Positions 9,031 to 64,000 of a stretch of 64,000 bases of DNA are shown here, in pieces. The notes under the pieces were generated by a model. The model was not told the DNA's origin. It was given only the letters and a program-made list of their open reading frames with translations, and searched no databases. Numbering within the stretch: the stretch's first letter is position 1; each line of letters opens with the position of its first letter. Made by a program: the position numbers and the translations under genes. This DNA is from a virus. The stretch covers positions 9,404-73,403 of IMG/VR virus record IMGVR_UViG_3300013126_000021. The stretch is one strand, 5' to 3'.

Positions 9031-9441
9031 TCATTCTCTATCTTCCTCTCTTGTATGCTCATCACATGCAGTATAATACCAACCACGCCCTCGAAACTTA
9101 CCAGGATTGCCACACACCTCACAGGTTACAGCACTCATGGCCTCAGCCATACGTGCCATGCCGTGAATTTGTTCATCGCCGCCATCATAGTAAAATCGCA
9201 AAGTACCATACTTCTCTTTGATTTGAGTAAGTATAAAAGGCACCTTTTCAATGTCATCCTTGCCCTTGTTGATCCAATCTAGATGGCTATTGATGCAAGC
9301 AAAAAGTTGATTGAGAATAGGATGCCACCCCGATCCACATTCAACACCAAACATGGGAAATGGTTCGATGGAAGATGCTTTGCGAGCAAACACAAGAGGA
9401 TACTTTTCAACCATTTCTGCTAGAAAATTTTCTTCACTCAT
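9031..9441 (-). CDS. Hypothetical protein (QIKEKYGTLRFY, CxxCG)
   Basis: Coupled ORF with a Zn-binding-like C-terminus. Confidence 0.75.
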   Translation of the reverse strand: MSEENFLAEMVEKYPLVFARKASSIEPFPMFGVECGSGWHPILNQLFACINSHLDWINKGKDDIEKVPFILTQIKEKYGTLRFYYDGGDEQIHGMARMAEAMSAVTCEVCGNPGKFRGRGWYYTACDEHTREEDRE

Positions 9442-13959: not shown

Positions 13960-14015
13960 GGTTTTTCCTTTTGGTTAGAGTGTAACAGGTTGCAAGAGGT
14001 TGCAAGAGGTTGTGG

Positions 14016-14372
14016 TCAGATACGGAAGAGGTAGGTCGTACCTTCATGGTCTACCTCCGAATAGTCCATGCGCAGGTTCTCGGCCGTGGCTTCCCAGTCC
14101 ACGACCACGTAAGAGGGCAGGTCGCGCGGAATCTCGCCGCAGTCTTCCAGGAGTTCCTGGCAGTATTCCGTGAAATCCTCTTCCGGAATCAATTGGACGC
14201 CATCCTTCCACGTATCCGAAGCATAGCCCTCCACCTCTTCCTTGAGGCTCTCCAGGGACGCCAATTCCTCCATCAGAACCGCCCGTTCGGTGTCGGGCAT
14301 TTCCAGGGTCTCCAGGTCATATTGAATCTCATCCATGCGGTCCTGAAGGTCGCGGGTGTCAATGATGTCCAT
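14016..14372 (-). CDS. Acidic ArdA-like antirestriction/DNA-mimic candidate
   Basis: Start revised to MDIID after AAGGA; very acidic; GEIPRDLPSYVVVDWEATAENL resembles the ArdA C-terminal segment. Confidence 0.6.
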   Translation of the reverse strand: MDIIDTRDLQDRMDEIQYDLETLEMPDTERAVLMEELASLESLKEEVEGYASDTWKDGVQLIPEEDFTEYCQELLEDCGEIPRDLPSYVVVDWEATAENLRMDYSEVDHEGTTYLFRI

Positions 14373-14412
14373 GCTTTTCTTTCCTTGTCTTAAAATTGAT
14401 TCGATGGAATGA

Positions 14413-14470
14413 ATTCTACAGGTACCAGCGCCCAAGGCAACCAACCCTGGAGTGTTGCATCGGTACAACA
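14413..14470 (-). promoter_or_regulatory. Island promoter repeat 1 (TTGCCT-16-TAGAAT plus box)
   Basis: Matches eight other copies in 14.4-20.2 kb. Confidence 0.8.
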
Positions 14471-14640
14471 AACCGATCCAATGCTCCAGGACCAACGGAT
14501 CGATCCGCCCATAGTGGGACCTTCCTCGATTCCTCCAGGCGCTTGGAGGCGCTCCTATCGGCTCGATTGTCTCGGTGCTGGTTGGTGGCTCTCACGGTGG
14601 AGCCTCTTATATAGTCTTATTCTATAAAAAAGGAACGATG

Positions 14641-14672
14641 ATAGCCTCCGCCTATCGATAGGCGGAGGCTAT
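14641..14672. repeat. Perfect 32-bp palindrome ATAGCCTCCGCCTATCGATAGGCGGAGGCTAT
   Basis: Self-complementary with no spacer, intergenic. Confidence 0.9.
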
Positions 14673-15032
14673 GAGCAGGATTTCCTGATTGATTTAGACT
14701 ATTAACGGAACCGGTGTTTTTTCTTGGAGACAACCCGAAGCCCCTCGGTGTACAGGTAGAATTCTACCAATTCGGTACCTGTACCTGCTTCCCTTTTAAG
14801 GTATGCGATCATATAATCCCAGCCCATTATTATTCCTTTATAAGATAAGAGCGGAAAGAATCCAAGAGGGCTTGGTACTCCAATGCCATCTCGGTAGAAT
14901 CCACCACGTTATTATATTCCCGAGCGGCGACATATGCTTGGTTAAACCAATTTATATCGCCATGCTTTTCTACATAATCGATGGCTTCACGCAGGAAAAC
15001 CATTGGGCTTTTATTCAACATAATACCTCCTA

Positions 15033-15860
15033 TCAACCGACGATGGTGTATTCCGCAAGGTCTTTCCACTTTGCACCTGCGGACTTGCGGATTTTCGTAA
15101 CCTGAATGAGAGTCCGAAGGGACAATTCCTTCACCTGATCCATGAGGGACTCAATCAACCCAAGGGCATCGACCTTGTGGGCTCTGTCATATTCGGGCAT
15201 GAAGCCCTTTTGATCGAGCAGGTACCGCATGCGGTCGATTTTCTGAGCATTGGACATGGTGAGGTCAACCGCCATGGATCGGGTGATGATAGCCTGATCG
15301 ATTGCTTCGGCTGGCAGGTTGGAGATAAAAACCACGCGCCCCTTGAATTCAAAGGACTGCGGAAGGTCGTCATCACGGAGATCCGCGCGCCATGAGATAA
15401 CACGGCGCGCATAGGAGTCCAATGCACCTTTGAGCAGGTTCAACGACACCGGATCCTTGAGGACTGAATCGCAATCATCGAACACGACCACGCCGTCCTT
15501 GTTTTCGTAGAGGGTGCGGTACAGCCCTTTGGGTGTAGAATAACCCTTGATGACTCGAAAGGACTTGCCCGTGTTAAGTTTGGAACCAACCTCGAATTCA
15601 TCCAGGAGCGTAACGTCGACCATGCCAGCCGCATTCAGGGCTTCGGACACGGTGTAGGACTTACCAAGCCCGCCAGGGCCGGACACGACCACGGACGCTT
15701 GGTCGCCTTTGGCCAACATGGTAACCATGTCGCCAAGGAAACCGAACCGTTGGTTGATCGAGAACCGCGATTCTACGGCCTTTTGGGTAAGGGCTTCGAC
15801 CGCGGTGGTCAGGCGGGACTTGGTACGACGGAAACCTGCTTTTGGTACGCCACGGGGCAT
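15033..15860 (-). CDS. P-loop ATPase (AAA-like)
   Basis: GPGGLGKS Walker A, VVVFDDCD Walker B, FISN sensor, SLRTL. Confidence 0.85.
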   Translation of the reverse strand: MPRGVPKAGFRRTKSRLTTAVEALTQKAVESRFSINQRFGFLGDMVTMLAKGDQASVVVSGPGGLGKSYTVSEALNAAGMVDVTLLDEFEVGSKLNTGKSFRVIKGYSTPKGLYRTLYENKDGVVVFDDCDSVLKDPVSLNLLKGALDSYARRVISWRADLRDDDLPQSFEFKGRVVFISNLPAEAIDQAIITRSMAVDLTMSNAQKIDRMRYLLDQKGFMPEYDRAHKVDALGLIESLMDQVKELSLRTLIQVTKIRKSAGAKWKDLAEYTIVG

Positions 15861-15936
15861 AGTCTAAACTCCTGTTGTTTTGTCTTGGTGTTGCGTTGGT
15901 GTTGCGTTGGTGTTGTTTAATCAATCGATGGAGAGA

Positions 15937-15995
15937 ATTCTACAGGAACCAGACGGTGTGGCAACCATGCTCCGGAGTGTTGTACCTATACAACA
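15937..15995 (-). promoter_or_regulatory. Island promoter repeat 2
   Basis: TTGCCA-16-TAGAAT; box at 15978-15995. Confidence 0.8.
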
Positions 15996-16277
15996 TCAGT
16001 TGAAGTGCTCATAACGCCGGATGGGGCTGTCCTTGTGAGGGGAGTTCCTATGCTCAATTTCCACAATATAACCCGCACCTTTCACGGCTTCAAGGAATCG
16101 AGGTGCATCATAATCCTCCTCCAGATAAACCGTTTTACCATTCATGTAGGAATAACCTGTAACAGGTTCTGACACCATATATTGGTCGACCAATACTCTT
16201 TTCACGGCCAACCAGCCATGCCCCGGATCGGTGTAGAATTTCAATTTCAAGGTTTTGGTTTTCATGTTAGCGGTCAC
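15996..16277 (-). CDS. Hypothetical protein (DPGHGWL...YLEED motif)
   Basis: ORF with a recognisable mobile-element motif. Confidence 0.7.
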   Translation of the reverse strand: MTANMKTKTLKLKFYTDPGHGWLAVKRVLVDQYMVSEPVTGYSYMNGKTVYLEEDYDAPRFLEAVKGAGYIVEIEHRNSPHKDSPIRRYEHFN

Positions 16278-16836
16278 TTACTGGAGCGATACGGTGGGAA
16301 TATCAACCACGGCAAAACCGAGGTCCGTATATTCCTGGATAAGGAGGTCGATCTCCATTAAATTTAGGAGTTCCTGCGCATATGCGATATCATCATCGGT
16401 GGCCTGATTGAACCAAGCCATCAGAACGGATTCTGATGCATTCAGGAGAAAATTCAGATTGGAACGGTCGTCGGTGTTCATTGTGTTTCCTTTCCAGGGT
16501 GTTTTGGTTTGCGTGAATACTTGGTTCGAATCGTATGCCGCTCCATCGGCTTGATGGGTGTACGGCATACGGGCTTGGGTACGGGTACGACAATCGGTTG
16601 GAGAACCTTCATTTCCTTACCTTTCCAATAGATTCAGCAATCCGCCGTTTGAGTTCCTGAATGTATTCATTATGCCAACCGAGTTCGAATTGAGGATGAT
16701 CCTTGGAAAAGGTCGTGGCACGCACCAATTCATTCTGTAGCATCCGAAGGGTCTTACCTTCGAAGTGCTTTGGATCCGTCGGGGACCATTTCCTGGGCTT
16801 GCTCATCATATACTCCAAAATTCAATCAATGGTTGG

Positions 16837-16896
16837 ATGATACAGGTACCAGACAGAATGGCAACCACCGGGCTGATCTGTTGCAGGAAAACAACT
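16837..16896 (-). promoter_or_regulatory. Island promoter repeat 3
   Basis: TTGCCA-16-TATCAT; box at 16879-16896. Confidence 0.7.
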
Positions 16897-17107
16897 TCAT
16901 TCCTCAGGTGCGCATTCGACATGATACGGTGCACCGGTACTCCAATCGGAGATCCATACTGTATCATCCTCGGGCACCCATTGGGTACAATGAGCGCACC
17001 TATATTCCGTTCGGTGCACTCGCCCCGAAAAGGTATCAAGGAAGGACCGAGAATTTCCAGTTTGTTCAATTTGAACCATTTTATTTCCTTATTTCATTAA
17101 GCCGCGA

Positions 17108-17863
17108 TTAAGCCGCTTTTAACATGATGGAGGGATACTTTACAAAGCCCGAGGTGTCCTTTTTGGCCTTGCCCTTTGCATAGAGCCCGACAACCACGCC
17201 TTTTGGATCGAGAAACCTAAGATCCGAATCGTCGCCATTGAATACTGCCCGCCCAGCATACGCCACCGGGAGGTCCTGGGATTTAGGTACACCGAAAACC
17301 ACGGCTACATTCATACCAGCATCCATGGCGCGAATTGCATCCGAATCATTGCCATCAGCGGCTGAAAAGGTCAGGTGGTAGTTGGAAATACCGACCACCT
17401 TACGCCCGAGGATTTTACTATAATCATAAAACTGGACATCAGAGAATGCAAGGAAGATATTAGCATACTCAATACCACCACGCACCACCGGGTACTTTTC
17501 CCATGCAATGTCAGAGGTGCCATTCAGGCGAAAAACGGGGACCAATCCAAGCTTGGTGGATTGACGGATGGCCTTTTCAATATCAGCCACCAACCGACTC
17601 ATGAAGGTAGTACGATCCTCGAAAAACAACCGGGTCTTACGCTTGCGCGCCTCTTGGATGACATTGGTTGATTCACCTTTGCGGAACATGCCACCGCGCC
17701 CAGCCGTGTTAAGACAAGCCGCCGAGCAACCAGCCGTACGCTTGGGGCAAGTCTCATAACCCGAAAGGTCAGCGGGCGCAAGGTGTAGCAGGTACGTCAT
17801 GTACCCCTGGTCCATACCTTTGAGGGTTTTCGGATTGCCAACGGTCAATAGTTGAAAGGTCAT
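17108..17863 (-). CDS. Gp88-like phage protein (Cys cluster)
   Basis: CPKRTAGCSAACL, RLNGTSDI, FYDYSK, YHLTFS, GDDSDLRFLD motifs. Confidence 0.75.
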   Translation of the reverse strand: MTFQLLTVGNPKTLKGMDQGYMTYLLHLAPADLSGYETCPKRTAGCSAACLNTAGRGGMFRKGESTNVIQEARKRKTRLFFEDRTTFMSRLVADIEKAIRQSTKLGLVPVFRLNGTSDIAWEKYPVVRGGIEYANIFLAFSDVQFYDYSKILGRKVVGISNYHLTFSAADGNDSDAIRAMDAGMNVAVVFGVPKSQDLPVAYAGRAVFNGDDSDLRFLDPKGVVVGLYAKGKAKKDTSGFVKYPSIMLKAA

Positions 17864-17911
17864 CAGAGGTCCTTGGTTGCTTTGTTGGTTGCTTCGTTCA
17901 TCATGTAATGG

Positions 17912-17970
17912 ATTCTACAGGTACCAGAACCGATGGCAATGATGTGGAGGAGTGTAGTGAGAAAACAACA
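17912..17970 (-). promoter_or_regulatory. Island promoter repeat 4
   Basis: TTGCCA-16-TAGAAT; TGTAG-N8-CAACA. Confidence 0.8.
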
Positions 17971-18388
17971 AGGATTGTGGGATAGATTATTCCAAATTGG
18001 ATTGGAATATGATAGGAAAAGGCTATTCGCCAGCCGATGGTGTCAAAAAACCGACACTTGTCGCGGTGTCGGTCGCGGATGGTCGGATGAGAATGATTGC
18101 TATTTAGGATGAGCGTGGATGGGCGTGAACCAGAGCCCACCAGTGCCAGCCGACCACTAGCAGCCAGAGCCAGCCAACCTAAGCCCGAGGCTCTCACGCG
18201 CCAAAACGATCTAGGAGCGCCTCGGAGGTGCGCAGGAAGGTCCCAGTACCATCCACACCGTTCCAAACGCTCCTACGCGCCTCCTTGGTTCCGTTGCATC
18301 GGAGCCACACTGGTGGGGTGCTGGTTGCCTCTACGGCTCTCCGCATGCTATAATGGTCCAAACGGCTTGCGCCGGTGCTGGTGGGCAG

Positions 18389-18490
18389 GCAGGGGCGGAT
18401 TAGAGCCTCGGACGTCCAGTGCTATGGTTCCATCCTACAGGAACCAGAACCGGTGGCAACCAACCCTGGACCTGTTGTATCAGGCCAACA
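18389..18490 (-). repeat. Promoter repeat 5 plus conserved ~40-nt non-coding downstream segment (copy A)
   Basis: 57/60 nt identical to 19208-19267. Confidence 0.8.
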
Positions 18491-18707
18491 CCTCTTGGAT
18501 ACCAATCTCATCCACCAGCAGGCGGGACACCGGTTCGGTACCACGCCAGCGGAGGTGGATAGGTTCATCCAGCACCAGCGTATGCTGAACGGTCCCTCCG
18601 TACTTTACACGGGACTCCACTACAGTACCGACCACGACGGTATCGGTAAGGTAAGCCGCTCGGACACGTTGACCCTCACGGATCCAGGTTGAATTGGTGG
18701 TTTTCAT
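18480..18707 (-). CDS. Hypothetical small beta-rich protein
   Basis: Coupled to the upstream ORF (TGATG). Confidence 0.65.
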   Translation of the reverse strand: MKTTNSTWIREGQRVRAAYLTDTVVVGTVVESRVKYGGTVQHTLVLDEPIHLRWRGTEPVSRLLVDEIGIQEVLA

Positions 18708-18913
18708 CAGACTAGGTCCCATCCGGAATCTCCGAAGTTTTCTTCGTAAAAGGAATGAAGCATGGAATCAATATATTCGGCATACGCTTGGCGCGCCTCT
18801 TCCTCATGGGACTCCTCTACCAATTCCCTCAATTCACGGTTCACCTCATCCATACGGACCTCCTCGATTGGTTTCTCGGTAAAAAAACGGTTGGAATCGT
18901 TTGGTCGCATCAA

Positions 18914-19099
18914 TTATTCTCCTTCCTCTTCCGACAGCCCCTGATCATATTCCATCACGGCCAACAGGTTGTTCCAGATATGCCGACGGTGCTCATTGTC
19001 GGCTTGGTTCCATTCATTCCAAAAGGAAGGATCCGGGCGAAAACCAAAGGCATCCTTGTGCAGGTCGGATACGAACCTGGTCATAGAATCGATGGGCAT
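18914..19099 (-). CDS. Hypothetical protein (SDLHKDAFGFRP motif)
   Basis: AAGGA RBS; downstream of promoter repeat 6. Confidence 0.7.
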   Translation of the reverse strand: MPIDSMTRFVSDLHKDAFGFRPDPSFWNEWNQADNEHRRHIWNNLLAVMEYDQGLSEEEGE

Positions 19100-19136
19100 G
19101 GTGCTTCCTTGTTTTGCTTCGTTCATCATGTAATGG

Positions 19137-19195
19137 ATTCTACAGGTGCCATGGGTGGTGGCAACCATTGGTGAACCTGTTGTATGGAAGCAACG
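19137..19195 (-). promoter_or_regulatory. Island promoter repeat 6
   Basis: TTGCCA-16-TAGAAT; box at 19178-19195. Confidence 0.8.
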
Positions 19196-19207
19196 GAAAA
19201 AAGGTGC

Positions 19208-19299
19208 GCAGGGGCGGATTAGAGCCTCGGGCATCCAGTGCTATGGTTCCATCCTACAGGTACCAGACTGGCTGGCAACCGTGTAGCATGGAAACAACA
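19208..19299 (-). repeat. Promoter repeat 7 plus conserved ~40-nt non-coding downstream segment (copy B)
   Basis: 57/60 nt identical to 18389-18448. Confidence 0.8.
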
Positions 19300-19301
19300 G
19301 G

Positions 19302-19523
19302 TCAGTCCAGAAGGACCATGTATTCCTCGGGGAAGTACCGACGGAACCAATCCAGGCCCTTCCTGACGATGGCATAATTCCCGACCATTTCCGCACCAAT
19401 GATGCAATCATATACGGCTACCGCATCAGGGGGAAGTGTCACCGACTGCCCGGTGAACCGGTTGGTGATCACCTCAGGTTCGGTCCCAAGGATGAGAGAA
19501 AAGGGAGGCTTTCGGTTGCTCAT
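19302..19523 (-). CDS. Hypothetical protein (NRFTG...AVYD...YMVLLD)
   Basis: GGAG RBS, packed ORF. Confidence 0.75.
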   Translation of the reverse strand: MSNRKPPFSLILGTEPEVITNRFTGQSVTLPPDAVAVYDCIIGAEMVGNYAIVRKGLDWFRRYFPEEYMVLLD

Positions 19524-19526
19524 CGT

Positions 19527-19709
19527 TCATTCTCCAGAAAAGGAAGGGGTTACACCGCAAGCTTCGAAAAACCGGATGGTATCGAAGCGGGGGTTAAGCT
19601 TCACGCAAGCCGACGCCACGGCCACCGAGGCATTCAGGCGGGCGGTGGGGTCCATCATCATACGGATGGATTCGGCGATGGTCTCGAAGTCTTTTTTGGA
19701 CATTGCCAT
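19527..19709 (-). CDS. Hypothetical protein (MSKKDFETIA...NPRFD...F..AC)
   Basis: AAGGA RBS downstream of promoter repeat 8. Confidence 0.75.
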   Translation of the reverse strand: MAMSKKDFETIAESIRMMMDPTARLNASVAVASACVKLNPRFDTIRFFEACGVTPSFSGE

Positions 19710-19755
19710 GGTATTTCCTTGGTTGGCTTGGTTGGTTTTTTGTTTCGATGGATGG

Positions 19756-19814
19756 ATTCTACAGGAACTAGACTGGCTGGCAACCTGTAGGGCCCCTGTT
19801 GTTTTTCTGCATCA
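19756..19814 (-). promoter_or_regulatory. Island promoter repeat 8
   Basis: TTGCCA-16-TAGAAT; TGTTG-N8-CATCA. Confidence 0.75.
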
Positions 19815-19890
19815 CCATGGTCTCCAAACGAAGAGGTCCAACAGGATCACCACCAGGGCGAAGAAAAACAACACCGAGAACACCGAGCGC

Positions 19891-20145
19891 TCAAGCATGG
19901 CGGCGCGCATTGGACATGTCACGGGCGACCATTTCCGTCCGCGCGACAAAGCTAGGCAGGAGGTCCGGATTGTCGGAGACCATATCGATCAGCATGGACT
20001 CCAGATAGCCGAGGGCATACAATCCGGAATTGGTTGAATCGGATCCACGCGAGACCTCCTCGCGGGTTCGGATCATACGGACGAAGGTCTCGACCACATT
20101 GGCGGCGAGGGCTCGGTCGACCTTGATGGTTTTGGCTTTGCTCAT
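19891..20145 (-). CDS. Hypothetical protein (YALGYLESML)
   Basis: AAGGAG RBS; first gene of the island. Confidence 0.7.
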   Translation of the reverse strand: MSKAKTIKVDRALAANVVETFVRMIRTREEVSRGSDSTNSGLYALGYLESMLIDMVSDNPDLLPSFVARTEMVARDMSNARRHA

Positions 20146-20179
20146 GCTTGGCTCCTTGTAAATTTTCATCATGGAATGG

Positions 20180-20237
20180 ATTCTACAGGGGCCACTGGTG
20201 GTGGCAACCAGTTCGGTAGTGTTGTGTGAGTGCAACA
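20180..20237 (-). promoter_or_regulatory. Island promoter repeat 9
   Basis: TTGCCA-16-TAGAAT; box at 20220-20237. Confidence 0.8.
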
Positions 20238-20665
20238 GGGGGGCTTAAAATTTGGCGGGCTGTTGCTTAAAAATTACGCGGTGTAAGTAATTTTGCGCTA
20301 TGGCCCAAACTCTTTTTTTTAAAAATTTATTTTCTGGGGGCCGGAAGAGAAATTTCGAAAAAATGCTATAGATAAAATTTTTTTGGAGGGCCCGGAGCCC
20401 TCCAACCTTTTTACTACTCTGTTTACTACTCTGTTATTACAACTACATCACCTACGAGCATTTCACCTGAGATATGGGCTGAACCCATCAATTCATTACC
20501 TTTTGCTTCGGCTAATTCAACTGTTGAAAATGGTCCTGCTGCTACAAAAAGGTCTCCTGAAATGTATTCAGTAATATATGTACCATCTACATCTACATAG
20601 ATTTTACAGGTCATATCATTGGCTGAAATGTCTTTTACTTCTACTGGATCGCTCATGTTTTTTCC

Positions 20666-62107: not shown

Positions 62108-62190
62108 TGGTGCGACTGGCCGGACTCGAACCGGCACGCCGAAGCGAGGGATTTTAAGTCCCTTGCGGCTACCTATTACGCCACAGTCGC
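62108..62190 (-). tRNA. tRNA-Leu (UAA)
   Basis: Cloverleaf, long variable arm, encoded CCA. Confidence 0.95.
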
Positions 62191-62196
62191 AGTGCT

Positions 62197-62271
62197 TGGT
62201 GCCTCCTGACAGGATCGAACTGCCGCTATTCGCCGTGTAAAGGCGACGTTTTACCATTAAACTAAGGAGGC
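62197..62271 (-). tRNA. tRNA-Val (UAC)
   Basis: TCGCC-TTTACAC-GGCGA arm, CCA. Confidence 0.95.
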
Positions 62272-62274
62272 TTT

Positions 62275-62348
62275 TGGAGCAGGATGTCAGAATCGAACTG
62301 ACAACATCAGCTTGGAAGGCTGTAGTTTTACCATTAAACTAATCCTGC
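62275..62348 (-). tRNA. tRNA-Gly (UCC)
   Basis: CAGC-CTTCCAA-GCTG, U73, CCA. Confidence 0.95.
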
Positions 62349-62827
62349 TATGCTACTAGACTTTTTAGACGATCTGCTGCGCCTGATGCAGCAAATGCAT
62401 TTGGTTTGACCAAAGGAACAACATTACACATTCCTTTTATATATCCAATTGCTTCATTCATTACGATATTAGAATTATACTCTTCACTTGGATTAATGTC
62501 AAGATGTACTTCAATATCATTGTCAATGATTGCTGCGAGTTGTAAATACATTTCTGCAACTTTATAAACTTCTGTCATAAGCCTCATTCTTGGTTTGTTT
62601 TGAGCCTTATCAAAATCTCTTTCACGAATTACTTCACCGAAGATTTTGCAACCATTATTACCATTGATATGTACAACAATTGCAATTGTGTAATCTGCAT
62701 AATTTACTCCATTGACTTTAAGTGTTTCTGAATCGCAACCAAGATAAACTTTGGTATTAGGTCCACAGTTATCAATGAATTCTTTTACTTTGTTCAGATC
62801 AATTTTTTTGTTATACACAATAATCAC
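62348..62827 (-). CDS. RNase H-like YkuK/DUF458 family protein
   Basis: YLGCDS, RLMTEV, EVHLDIN, KPNAFAASGAAD. Confidence 0.8.
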   Translation of the reverse strand: MIIVYNKKIDLNKVKEFIDNCGPNTKVYLGCDSETLKVNGVNYADYTIAIVVHINGNNGCKIFGEVIRERDFDKAQNKPRMRLMTEVYKVAEMYLQLAAIIDNDIEVHLDINPSEEYNSNIVMNEAIGYIKGMCNVVPLVKPNAFAASGAADRLKSLVA

Positions 62828-62837
62828 CTTTTAATAA

Positions 62838-62911
62838 TGGCCTCCCAGCACGGATTCGAACCGCAATCGAAAGTTTTGGAGACTTCTATGTTGCCTTTAC
62901 ACCACTGGGAG
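62838..62911 (-). tRNA. tRNA-Trp (CCA)
   Basis: Loop CTCCAAA, G73, CCA. Confidence 0.92.
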
Positions 62912-63155
62912 TTTCTATAGTTAGACTTTCTTCTGTCGTAAGAAGATCATAATATTCATTTTTATATATAGCAAGCTCAAATTCGGCTAGTTGATTTATT
63001 TTTCTCTGATCAAGTAAACGATTATTTTCGCACCAAGGGCAACCACCATGATGTTCACAAGAAACAGAAACATATTGTCTTGTACCATCACGAACAATTT
63101 TTTTTGTCTTTCTTTCTTTTCGATAAGTACTAGACATTTTACAACCTCTAAAAAG

Positions 63156-63230
63156 TGGCTCCGGATCCTGGGCTCGAACCAGGGACCAAATGATTAACAG
63201 TCATCTACTCTACCACTGAGCTAATCCGGA
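63156..63230 (-). tRNA. tRNA-Asn (GUU)
   Basis: Loop CTGTTAA, G73, CCA. Confidence 0.95.
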
Positions 63231-63241
63231 ATAAATCTAAT

Positions 63242-63319
63242 TGGTCCGAGTGGTGTGATTCGAACACACGATTTCCTGCTCCCAAAGCAGGCGGAATGAC
63301 CGGGCTATCCTACACTCGG
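63242..63319 (-). tRNA. tRNA-Pro (UGG)
   Basis: CCTGC-TTTGGGA-GCAGG, CCA. Confidence 0.95.
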
Positions 63320-63326
63320 AAAAACT

Positions 63327-63400
63327 TGGTGCCTCCACCTGGAATCGAACTAGGAATAGCGGGTTACAAAGCCGCTGTTATACCATTTAACTATAGAGGC
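63327..63400 (-). tRNA. tRNA-Thr (UGU)
   Basis: Loop TTTGTAA; C31-C39 mismatch and one T-stem mismatch. Confidence 0.85.
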
Positions 63401-63407
63401 AAAAACT

Positions 63408-63482
63408 TGGTGGACCGCTGGAGGATCGAACTCCAACCTCCGCCGTGCAAAGGCGGCGTGCTCCCATTATCACTAGCAGCCC
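63408..63482 (-). tRNA. tRNA-Ala (UGC)
   Basis: G3-U70, loop TTTGCAC, CCA. Confidence 0.95.
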
Positions 63483-63484
63483 AA

Positions 63485-63681
63485 ATTTTTAAAGTTGTTA
63501 TCTTGTTATAGATGCCTTCACCGTACATCGTTTGGTTTTAACGTTCAGGCTTATTCTTCAAGCGTCCAAGAAGTCTTCACCTTTCAACCAACTCCTGATT
63601 GCAAGTATCCGGTCATGCAACCATTCAGAGATCCACTAACCTGCGAACACAGGTATATTCCAAAATAACAACTTTAAAAAT
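63485..63681 (-). ncRNA. Candidate structured ncRNA closed by a 17-bp terminal stem
   Basis: Perfect inverted repeat 63485-63501 / 63665-63681; no credible ORF. Confidence 0.55.
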
Positions 63682-63753
63682 CCTGCTTACCGTATACAGG
63701 ATTACCCAAGGGTAACGGCTTAACTACATAAAGTCTCCCGACTTGATATATAC

Positions 63754-63806
63754 ATTGTATCAGTAAATAATTTATATGTCAATATTAGTGTTGTATATAT
63801 GCAACC
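63754..63806 (-). promoter_or_regulatory. Sigma70 promoter TTGACA-17-TACAAT with TGTTG-N8-CAAC box, driving the tRNA operon
   Basis: -10 at 63754-63759, -35 at 63777-63782. Confidence 0.8.
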
Positions 63807-63954
63807 ATATTGAAGCACACTCTCTCACGGCTTTCACGTGCGAATACCCTATCCTTACGGACCTTACTTACCCTATTTACTAGGTTGCTTCTGTGTTTCA
63901 TCCGGATTTTACTAGACAGAAGTTAGGGGGTTTTAGAATGTGCTTCAATATGGT
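63804..63954 (-). ncRNA. Candidate structured ncRNA closed by a 16-bp terminal stem, abutting the tRNA-Leu 3' end
   Basis: Perfect inverted repeat 63804-63819 / 63939-63954. Confidence 0.55.
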
Positions 63955-64000
63955 GCCCCAGGCGAGACTCGAACTCGCAAAATTTGGCTTCTAAGACCAA
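63951..64000 (-). tRNA. tRNA-Leu (UAG), 3' part (truncated by the window)
   Basis: TTGGT-CTTAGAA-GCCAA, T arm, ACCA. Confidence 0.85.

Follow-up and report, generated by a model that had tools for sequence, protein, structure and literature searches.

An uncultured lake-water T4-like phage carries twice, in its early region and on the same strand, an early promoter followed by an invariant 38-nucleotide (nt) leader instead of a gene, and one of the two copies stands face to face with a conserved promoter on the other strand. The element lies in a stretch of 64,000 nt, called here the window, which is 64 kb of the 73.4-kb IMG/VR virus record IMGVR_UViG_3300013126_000021 (positions 9,404 to 73,403; estimated completeness of the record, 44%). 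Comparison with related phages indicates that the leader is under selection and is not a neutral duplication. We tentatively read the two facing promoters as the source of a sense/antisense pair of RNAs, a reading that we hold to be somewhat more apt to fail than to stand. The conserved opposing promoter is absent from an earlier note on this DNA, in which a duplicated promoter was thought to drive a short non-coding transcript, and its presence suggests a sense/antisense arrangement instead.

In the usual description of T4-type phages, simple host-type promoters run the early programme, and orphan genes are shuffled in variable regions. The element described here is non-coding and better conserved than the neighbouring genes, it is linked to an opposing promoter, and it outlasts the turnover of the cassettes. 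If the sense/antisense reading is true, it would add an RNA-level layer of control in lytic aquatic myoviruses and would offer a handle on the coupling of cassette exchange and transcription control.

The repeated promoter-leader and the promoter that faces it

One direct-repeat family was found, formed by 18389-18461 and 19208-19280 (73 nt, 90% identity, spacing 819 nt). Both copies are on the minus strand and read TTGCCA-N16-TAGGAT, then 5 nt, then CATAGCACTGG-N4-CCGAGGCTCTAATCCGCCCCTGC. Much of the earlier description holds: of the 57/60 identity that had been reported, the three differences were counted again by eye over 60 nt, two of them within the 4-nt stretch of the leader and one in the promoter spacer; the promoter (18459-18432 and 19278-19251) and the shared leader are present at both copies; and no conserved open reading frame (ORF) or ribosome-binding site follows. 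The sole ATG sits in the variable loop of copy B and is missing from the copies of other phages, and an ORF of 106 amino acids starting there was rejected because this ATG is not conserved. Conservation is indeed higher in the transcribed part than in the spacer, both between the two copies of the window and among phages, and copy B does run into a next promoter (19164-19137). What did not stand is a discrete, free-standing RNA of about 40 nt produced at both loci: copy A opens an ORF-free unit whose terminator lies about 380 nt on, and at copy B folding found no terminator hairpin ahead of the T-run (19197-19202).

The promoter belongs to a family, TTGCCA-N16-TAGRAT, with eight minus-strand sites within 14413-20207 (0.96 expected, at most 4 in 100 shuffles). 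A short stem-loop precedes each site, and an alignment of the eight promoters gives the upstream consensus TGTTGTATnCATACAACA; most of the promoter-adjacent stem-loops in the window have short stems and no U-tail. The two copies differ from ordinary cassette promoters in one respect only, namely that the leader stands where the others have a ribosome-binding site and a gene.

The opposing promoter, P(+), lies 34 nt past the leader of copy A and reads TTGCCT-N18-TGcTATAAT, an extended -10 promoter of sigma-70 type. It scores 10/12 with the TG, which makes it the best plus-strand promoter match in the 10 kb scanned, and it is the sole site of its kind within the window. Since the predicted starts, at about 18361 (plus strand) and 18425 (minus strand), face each other 65 nt apart, the whole leader would be transcribed in both senses; at the level of sequence, two face-to-face promoters with a predicted overlap of 65 nt are present. 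No facing promoter was found at copy B, where a T-run, a stem-loop and the next promoter come after the leader instead.

The unit headed by copy A contains conserved blocks common to seven related loci (L004, L008, L094, L100, L101, L104 and L105). A coding reading of 18045-18425 was rejected, because the frames of the window and of L008, read by eye, differ across the shared blocks. The hairpin at its end is not listed by a simple terminator scan, its loop exceeding the rule of the scan. Coordinates are collected in Table 1.

Table 1. Features of the promoter-leader copies, the opposing promoter and the cassette between the copies (window coordinates)
Feature	Position	Strand	Details
Promoter, copy A	18432..18459	-	-35 18459-18454, -10 TAGGAT 18437-18432; consensus scan and family search
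Leader, copy A (paired)	18389..18426	-	predicted start A 18425
Opposing promoter P(+)	18325..18375	+	-35 TTGCCT 18325-18330, TG 18346-18347, -10 TATAAT 18349-18354
P(+) start region	to 18375	+	conserved GGTCCAAACG...CGCCGG; predicted start ~18361
Stretch between predicted starts	18361..18425	both	65 nt, holds the whole leader; dual-strand transcription predicted from the coordinates
ORF-free unit headed by copy A	18045..18425	-	~380 nt
Site complementary to the leader	18183..18194	-	12 nt, AGAGCCUCGGGC as RNA; inverted repeats I3, I6; helix in the minimum-energy fold
Terminator-like hairpin	18045..18072	-	CCGACAC/GTGTCGG, then T6; read in the sequence and folded
Promoter, copy B	19251..19278	-	-35 TTGCCA 19278-19273, -10 TAGGAT 19256-19251; consensus scan and family search
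Leader, copy B (solo)	19208..19245	-	38 nt, predicted start A 19244
T6 run	19197..19202	-	5 nt after leader B
Short stem-loop	19179..19196	-	GTTG...CAAC type, ahead of the next promoter; fits the layout described in PMC2839356
Next early promoter	19137..19164	-	TTGCCA-N16-TAGAAT; predicted to drive the cassette genes; consensus scan and family search
Cassette of three small orphan genes	18480..19099	-	18914-19099, 18707-18913, 18480-18722; ORF list
Conserved 73-amino-acid gene ahead of the solo copy	19302..19523	-	204 relatives in IMG/VR

Related phages and the origin of the second copy

Homologues were collected by several routes. The exact 23-mer of the leader occurs in five IMG/VR contigs, twice in two of these; among the IMG/VR relatives of the 73-amino-acid protein encoded ahead of copy B, 80 loci were kept of 204; and degenerate patterns of the P(+) core led to 7 viral and 11 metagenome stretches. 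When 185,579 species genomes were scanned for exact matches to a 21-mer, one contig was returned, an 8-kb phage-like piece with both copies (L105). This contig, filed under a metagenome-assembled genome of the Cyclobacteriaceae, carries the 73-amino-acid gene, both leader copies and the long non-coding unit, and it may point to the host or be there through an error of binning. Among the isolate phages of INPHARED, blastn gave no match with 17900-19400 or with the class-2 element described below, and the 73-amino-acid protein has a single match among isolate phages (39%, one Pelagibacter phage). In the literature searched, where sources were available in part, no description of this element was found.

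Outside its loop, the leader is the most constant part of the element. Over seven solo copies (21 pairwise comparisons), mean pairwise identity is 100% at the 34 non-loop positions of the leader, 37% in its 4-nt loop, 75% in the 45-nt promoter and 83% in 200 nt of the adjacent gene. Recent gene conversion cannot account for the identity of the rest of the leader, because the loops of the solo and paired copies differ in seven of eight genomes. In three genomes the two copies also differ at the R position, where the solo copy has G and the paired copy A, so that a G.U pair with the plus-strand RNA would be kept. Ten distinct leader variants were folded: each forms at its 5' end a weak hairpin (-2.5 to -4.5 kcal/mol) whose loop has 3, 4 or 5 nt, the hairpin being the same in 9/10, and three divergent variants have an extra C-G pair. 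The centre of the leader being free in both sequence and length, a hairpin loop fits better than the spacer of a protein-binding palindrome. The loop of leader B varies even within the population, as at window position 19231, where the contigs of 4/4 DNA runs, including a run covering 95% of the stretch, have A instead of G.

A recent neutral duplication lacking homologues, which had been considered as the alternative, is excluded, since the leader is highly conserved, has homologues in many related phages, and occurs as a pair in nine related genomes. In eight of these, solo and paired class-1 copies are found together: the solo copy directly follows the 73-amino-acid gene, the paired one lies 600-1400 nt further, and the small genes between them differ among the genomes. 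In the ninth and more divergent genome (G001) the same two copies, at a spacing of 603 nt, flank a homologue of the gene that comes first in the window's cassette. The solo promoter-leader comes directly after the stop codon of the 73-amino-acid gene in eight phage lineages, and a T-rich or AT-rich tract follows 8/8 solo copies and none of the paired copies read.

Two classes of leader share P(+). Class 1 is the leader of the window; class 2 has the promoter TTGACG-N17-TGGTATAAT and a G-rich leader containing ACTGGGGTGGAC. Among 18 distinct class-1 copies, 10 have a facing extended -10 promoter within 170 nt and 8 are solo, with a distance of 34 or 53 nt from leader end to -10; among 20 distinct class-2 copies, 8 have a facing promoter within the same limit and 12 are solo, with a distance of 66-67 nt (53 in one). 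Taken together, 18 of the 38 distinct leader copies have a facing promoter, against a background of 0.0095 per 170 nt across all loci. In class-2 phages the paired element is located where the early genes diverge. In one of them (L091) a leftward promoter comes first, followed by the rightward leader promoter, then by the leftward P(+) and last by a rightward promoter; the two inner ones are upstream promoters of opposite operons, with overlapping leaders.

P(+) could be compared in 17 distinct homologues, of which ten were fetched with the core as search pattern, the -35 lying outside every pattern used. A -35 of TTGCC (TTGAC in L009), a spacing of 18-19 nt, TGnTAYAAT and the following GGTCCAAACG are kept, and 10-11 nt of the spacer beside the -35 are freely variable; inside the conserved block, variation is confined to the N that follows TG and to the third base of the -10. 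Judged from these alignments, the conservation is promoter-like and not helix-like. All seven of the P(+) found by other routes (the window, L004, L008, L009, L016, L020 and L105) have the core, and two class-2 loci found through the leader (L031 and L023) keep the -35 and the extended -10 with changed flanks.

Several further observations concern the class-2 leader. Its solo form can be compact, as in L047 (1560-1675), where a promoter, about 85 nt, and a hairpin with U5 follow one another with no ORF. The family defined by ACTGGGGTGGAC comprises L047 and 16 other loci, follows a consensus extended -10 promoter and has at most one copy per near-complete genome; in the window no second copy of the class-2 motif was found. 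The tail of the class-1 leader, TCCRCCCC, is complementary to the core of the class-2 leader, GGGGTGGA (estimated chance of a shared 8-mer about 0.03), and in L104 a class-2-like piece lies 130 nt upstream of the class-1 unit. Both leaders can serve as short exact markers to trace this uncultured freshwater phage group.

The origin of the second copy was approached through the contigs of four DNA runs aligned to the window, parts without cover being left out for X2-X4. One of the runs (X4) contains a relative (about 89% identity over 19208-19506) in which a stem-loop of the family, 32 letters long, is all that stands between 18375 and 19208. The order in this relative is 73-amino-acid gene, promoter-leader, stem-loop, P(+), with a single copy and no cassette. 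This arrangement recalls the cassettes called PeSL (promoter-early stem-loop), known from hyperplastic regions of T4-type phages (PMC2839356, PMC4122927); cassette circles, and crossovers that fall between the -10 and the ATG, are reported for them (PMC2839356). The single-copy relative, the differing cassettes and these reported crossovers and circles suggest that copy B goes back to the recombination of a cassette into the promoter-leader, and the sequences fit a duplication by insertion of a PeSL-type cassette.

The likeness extends to several features. As in the two accounts of PeSL (Arbiol et al. 2010, PMC2839356; Comeau et al. 2014, PMC4122927), a repeated early promoter of sigma-70 type and an adjacent stem-loop are found among small orphan genes, in a variable region with gain and loss of cassettes, and the repeats would serve as exchange points that insert, delete or swap cassettes, with crossovers between the -10 and the ATG. 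Two differences are apparent: here two promoters carry an invariant 38-nt leader instead of a gene, one of them facing a conserved opposing promoter, and the stem-loops are short and AU-rich, whereas the authors describe polyG/polyC stems.

A proposed sense/antisense pair and the alternatives to it

In the reading that we favour, the repeated unit would be a specialised early promoter with a sequence-constrained leader, set in a hyperplastic early region that shuffles cassettes. Copy A, face to face with the extended -10 promoter on the other strand, would be the primary copy, and its leader would be made both as a sense RNA, the 5' end of the non-coding RNA of about 380 nt, and as an antisense RNA. 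Copy B would be the footprint of a cassette inserted into the promoter-leader by homologous exchange and then kept under selection. The plus-strand RNA, convergent transcription or both would damp the leader-bearing early transcripts, in cis at copy A and in trans at copy B; at the latter, a contiguous match of 23 nt ends 5 nt before the T-run, and pairing there could favour premature termination. The firing of either promoter, the pairing of the RNAs and the target regulated are what we infer from this arrangement.

Face-to-face promoters with an antisense RNA are familiar from RNA-IN/RNA-OUT of IS10 and from RNA II/RNA I of ColE1. In icsA/RnaG, convergent promoters 120 bp apart go with an attenuation induced by the antisense RNA (PMC2879508). 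Both icsA/RnaG (PMC2879508) and pR/pL of coliphage 186 (PMC3675496) share with the present element promoters that face each other over tens of bases and transcripts with complementary 5' ends, and in such systems, as here, the antisense RNA might interfere in cis and also reach a second copy of the target in trans. They differ in that the element described here is known from sequence alone, its target is non-coding or is a leader upstream of another promoter, and the phage is lytic; a repressor or a role in replication would be conjectural here.

A number of points weigh against a sense/antisense pair. The frozen sequence of the leader is not fully explained by it, a cis-encoded antisense pair alone giving no account of 34 positions frozen across lineages. 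The loops of solo and paired copies differ, as described above, and in G001 the tails of the two copies are unlike at 2 positions, a difference that would break up pairing in trans. Because copy B has its own downstream promoter, its attenuation would change little. Facing promoters are lacking at 12/20 class-2 leaders, and the invariance of the P(+) 22-mer is partly one of ascertainment, since 10/17 of the cores were fetched by the core pattern. On the plus strand of the window no genes lie downstream of P(+) and no terminator is predicted near it, the first being at 20383-20405, and no RNA runs containing 17900-19350 are listed.

A more far-reaching version, which we think improbable, would see here an RNA control circuit new for T4-type phages: a non-coding RNA of about 380 nt whose first 65 nt are covered by an antisense RNA, as in a plasmid primer with its antisense. 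The solo copy might then be an antisense sponge, or a split terminator that needs the antisense in trans, and the circuit might time the firing of an origin, DnaA-box clusters being found in the same region of relatives.

An unlikely alternative is that copy A is the 5' end of a structured early non-coding RNA of about 380 nt, in which the leader would close a helix with 18194-18183 and copy B would be a competing 5' arm. The unit is ORF-free, bounded by a promoter and a terminator, with conserved blocks between variable stretches; in the window a helix of 12 bp joins leader positions 18411-18400 to 18194-18183, and a complement to CCGAGGC, read by eye, recurs in seven long forms with differing extensions. 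The measurements speak against it. The unit of 387 nt folds no better than its shuffles (z = -0.77), and none of ten folds (this unit, short pieces of both strands and two class-2 units) beats them (z from -1.21 to +1.06). When duplexes between the leader and the downstream part were compared with 200 dinucleotide shuffles at eight loci, 11/200 shuffles were at least as good for the window and 27-198/200 for the other seven, which is not significant. The compact forms (L016 and class 2) lack the 3' part. Homologues and covariation had been proposed as the signs to look for: homologues exist in many related phages, and on the other side there is no match to Rfam and the RNAalifold covariation term of six long forms is +1.46. 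In the region, Rfam at the gathering threshold and ARAGORN gave nothing, and Rfam at E up to 10 gave only a 14-bit match to RgsA, whose gathering score is 88.4. A tRNA-like reading was rejected as well, the leader in either sense matching at most 8 bases of the eight tRNAs of the phage in local alignment. These structure tests being negative or weak, a structured RNA is not claimed.

An origin of replication, in which the promoters would make an R-loop or primer RNA with its antisense regulator or would activate unwinding, has in our estimate only a small chance of being right. It is suggested by clusters of DnaA boxes, present in more than 20 related loci at 230-690 nt (in two cases about 1.45 kb) downstream of the promoter-leader and sharing, in L009, L100 and L107, a non-coding stretch with the class-1 leader; by the position of the unit where early genes diverge in L091, L047 and G001; and by the strong G/C asymmetry of the leader and the stretch of lower G+C after the terminator. 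The window's 73-kb record has no such cluster (24 hits with at most 1 mismatch, against 26 in the reversed control), in the complete relative G005 the cumulative GC skew climbs monotonically and does not turn near 169 kb, and copy B is left unexplained. T4-type origins are not known to rely on DnaA. The clusters themselves comprise 3-6 boxes with at most 1 mismatch, often as pairs 11 bp apart, in non-coding stretches of the early regions of L010, L014/L107, L015, L017, L018, L023, L030, L035, L036, L044, L047, L052, L062, L063, L066, L069, L009 and L100, where they may mark an origin or a DnaA sink.

The leader might instead be a signal for processive antitermination, acting in cis as RNA for read-through of the stem-loop terminators between cassettes, although we regard this too as improbable; like the R-loop primer, it was among the functions suggested in the earlier note. 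Lambdoid put and nut sites are paired, promoter-proximal antitermination sites in RNA, each made of a hairpin and a conserved tract, and the present element resembles them in its two copies, which lie close behind early promoters and combine a hairpin with a conserved tract. The leader always starts at the predicted +1 of an early promoter, its small hairpin has a loop free in sequence and length (3-5 nt) and precedes an invariant tract, and stem-loops and a terminator lie downstream of both copies. The likeness is one of layout; the hairpin is much weaker here (-2.5 to -4.5 kcal/mol), there is no Rfam hit, neither a second hairpin nor covariation was observed, a factor is not known, and the facing promoter is unexplained.

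That the copies are a by-product only, direct repeats left by the entry of a cassette, with a leader that has no function of its own, we consider quite unlikely. The single-copy relative, the differing cassettes between the copies and the PeSL crossovers between the -10 and the ATG reported in PMC2839356 would agree with it. It does not account for a leader whose non-loop positions are invariant around a mid-leader loop that is near random (37%), next to a gene of 83% identity, and gene conversion would have homogenised the loops too, yet they differ in 7/8 genomes.

Very unlikely is a DNA operator, the leader being bound by a phage regulator just downstream of the two promoters: the sequence is invariant and, around a free centre, an imperfect palindrome (AGCnnnGG-N4-CCnnnGCT), but a centre of 3, 4 or 5 nt would rotate the half-sites, the invariant tail is not palindromic and no DNA-binding domain was found in the neighbours. 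The decoy RNAs proposed by the earlier note, a mimic of CRISPR repeats or a type III antitoxin, are in our view most improbable, although the element is short, non-coding, promoter-driven and duplicated: the copies are 819 nt apart and form no tandem array, there is neither a toxin-like neighbour nor a PADLOC match to a defence family, and the exact 21-mer is in no species genome scanned except the one phage-like contig, a scan by exact matching only, which may lack the host and does not address partial mimicry.

Genomic setting of the window

The assignment to a T4-like phage agrees with the DNA polymerase of the window, which is about 51% identical to those of T4-like Synechococcus myoviruses, and with T4-type replication genes that include ribonucleotide reductase and a DnaB-like helicase; the DNA runs that contain the stretch are lake-water metagenomes. 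The minus strand carries nearly all the long ORFs from 2 to 58 kb. Searches of the cassette genes and their neighbours against Pfam, PHROG and PADLOC gave no family.

The genome has about 33% G+C, and an island at 14.0-20.3 kb has 48-54% with local peaks of 63%. Both leader copies lie inside it, as do all eight TTGCCA-N16-TAGRAT promoters (window 14000-20300), and the island looks like a block acquired from a relative of higher G+C. Its right edge is an AT-rich stretch of about 190 nt without an ORF (20230-20425), and its last part is a strong hairpin (20383-20405) that is followed by a U-run only on the plus strand, although the neighbouring genes are on the minus strand. At the other end of the window, 62108-64000 on the minus strand holds eight tRNA genes and a ninth cut by the window end, and each of these eight ends in an encoded CCA.

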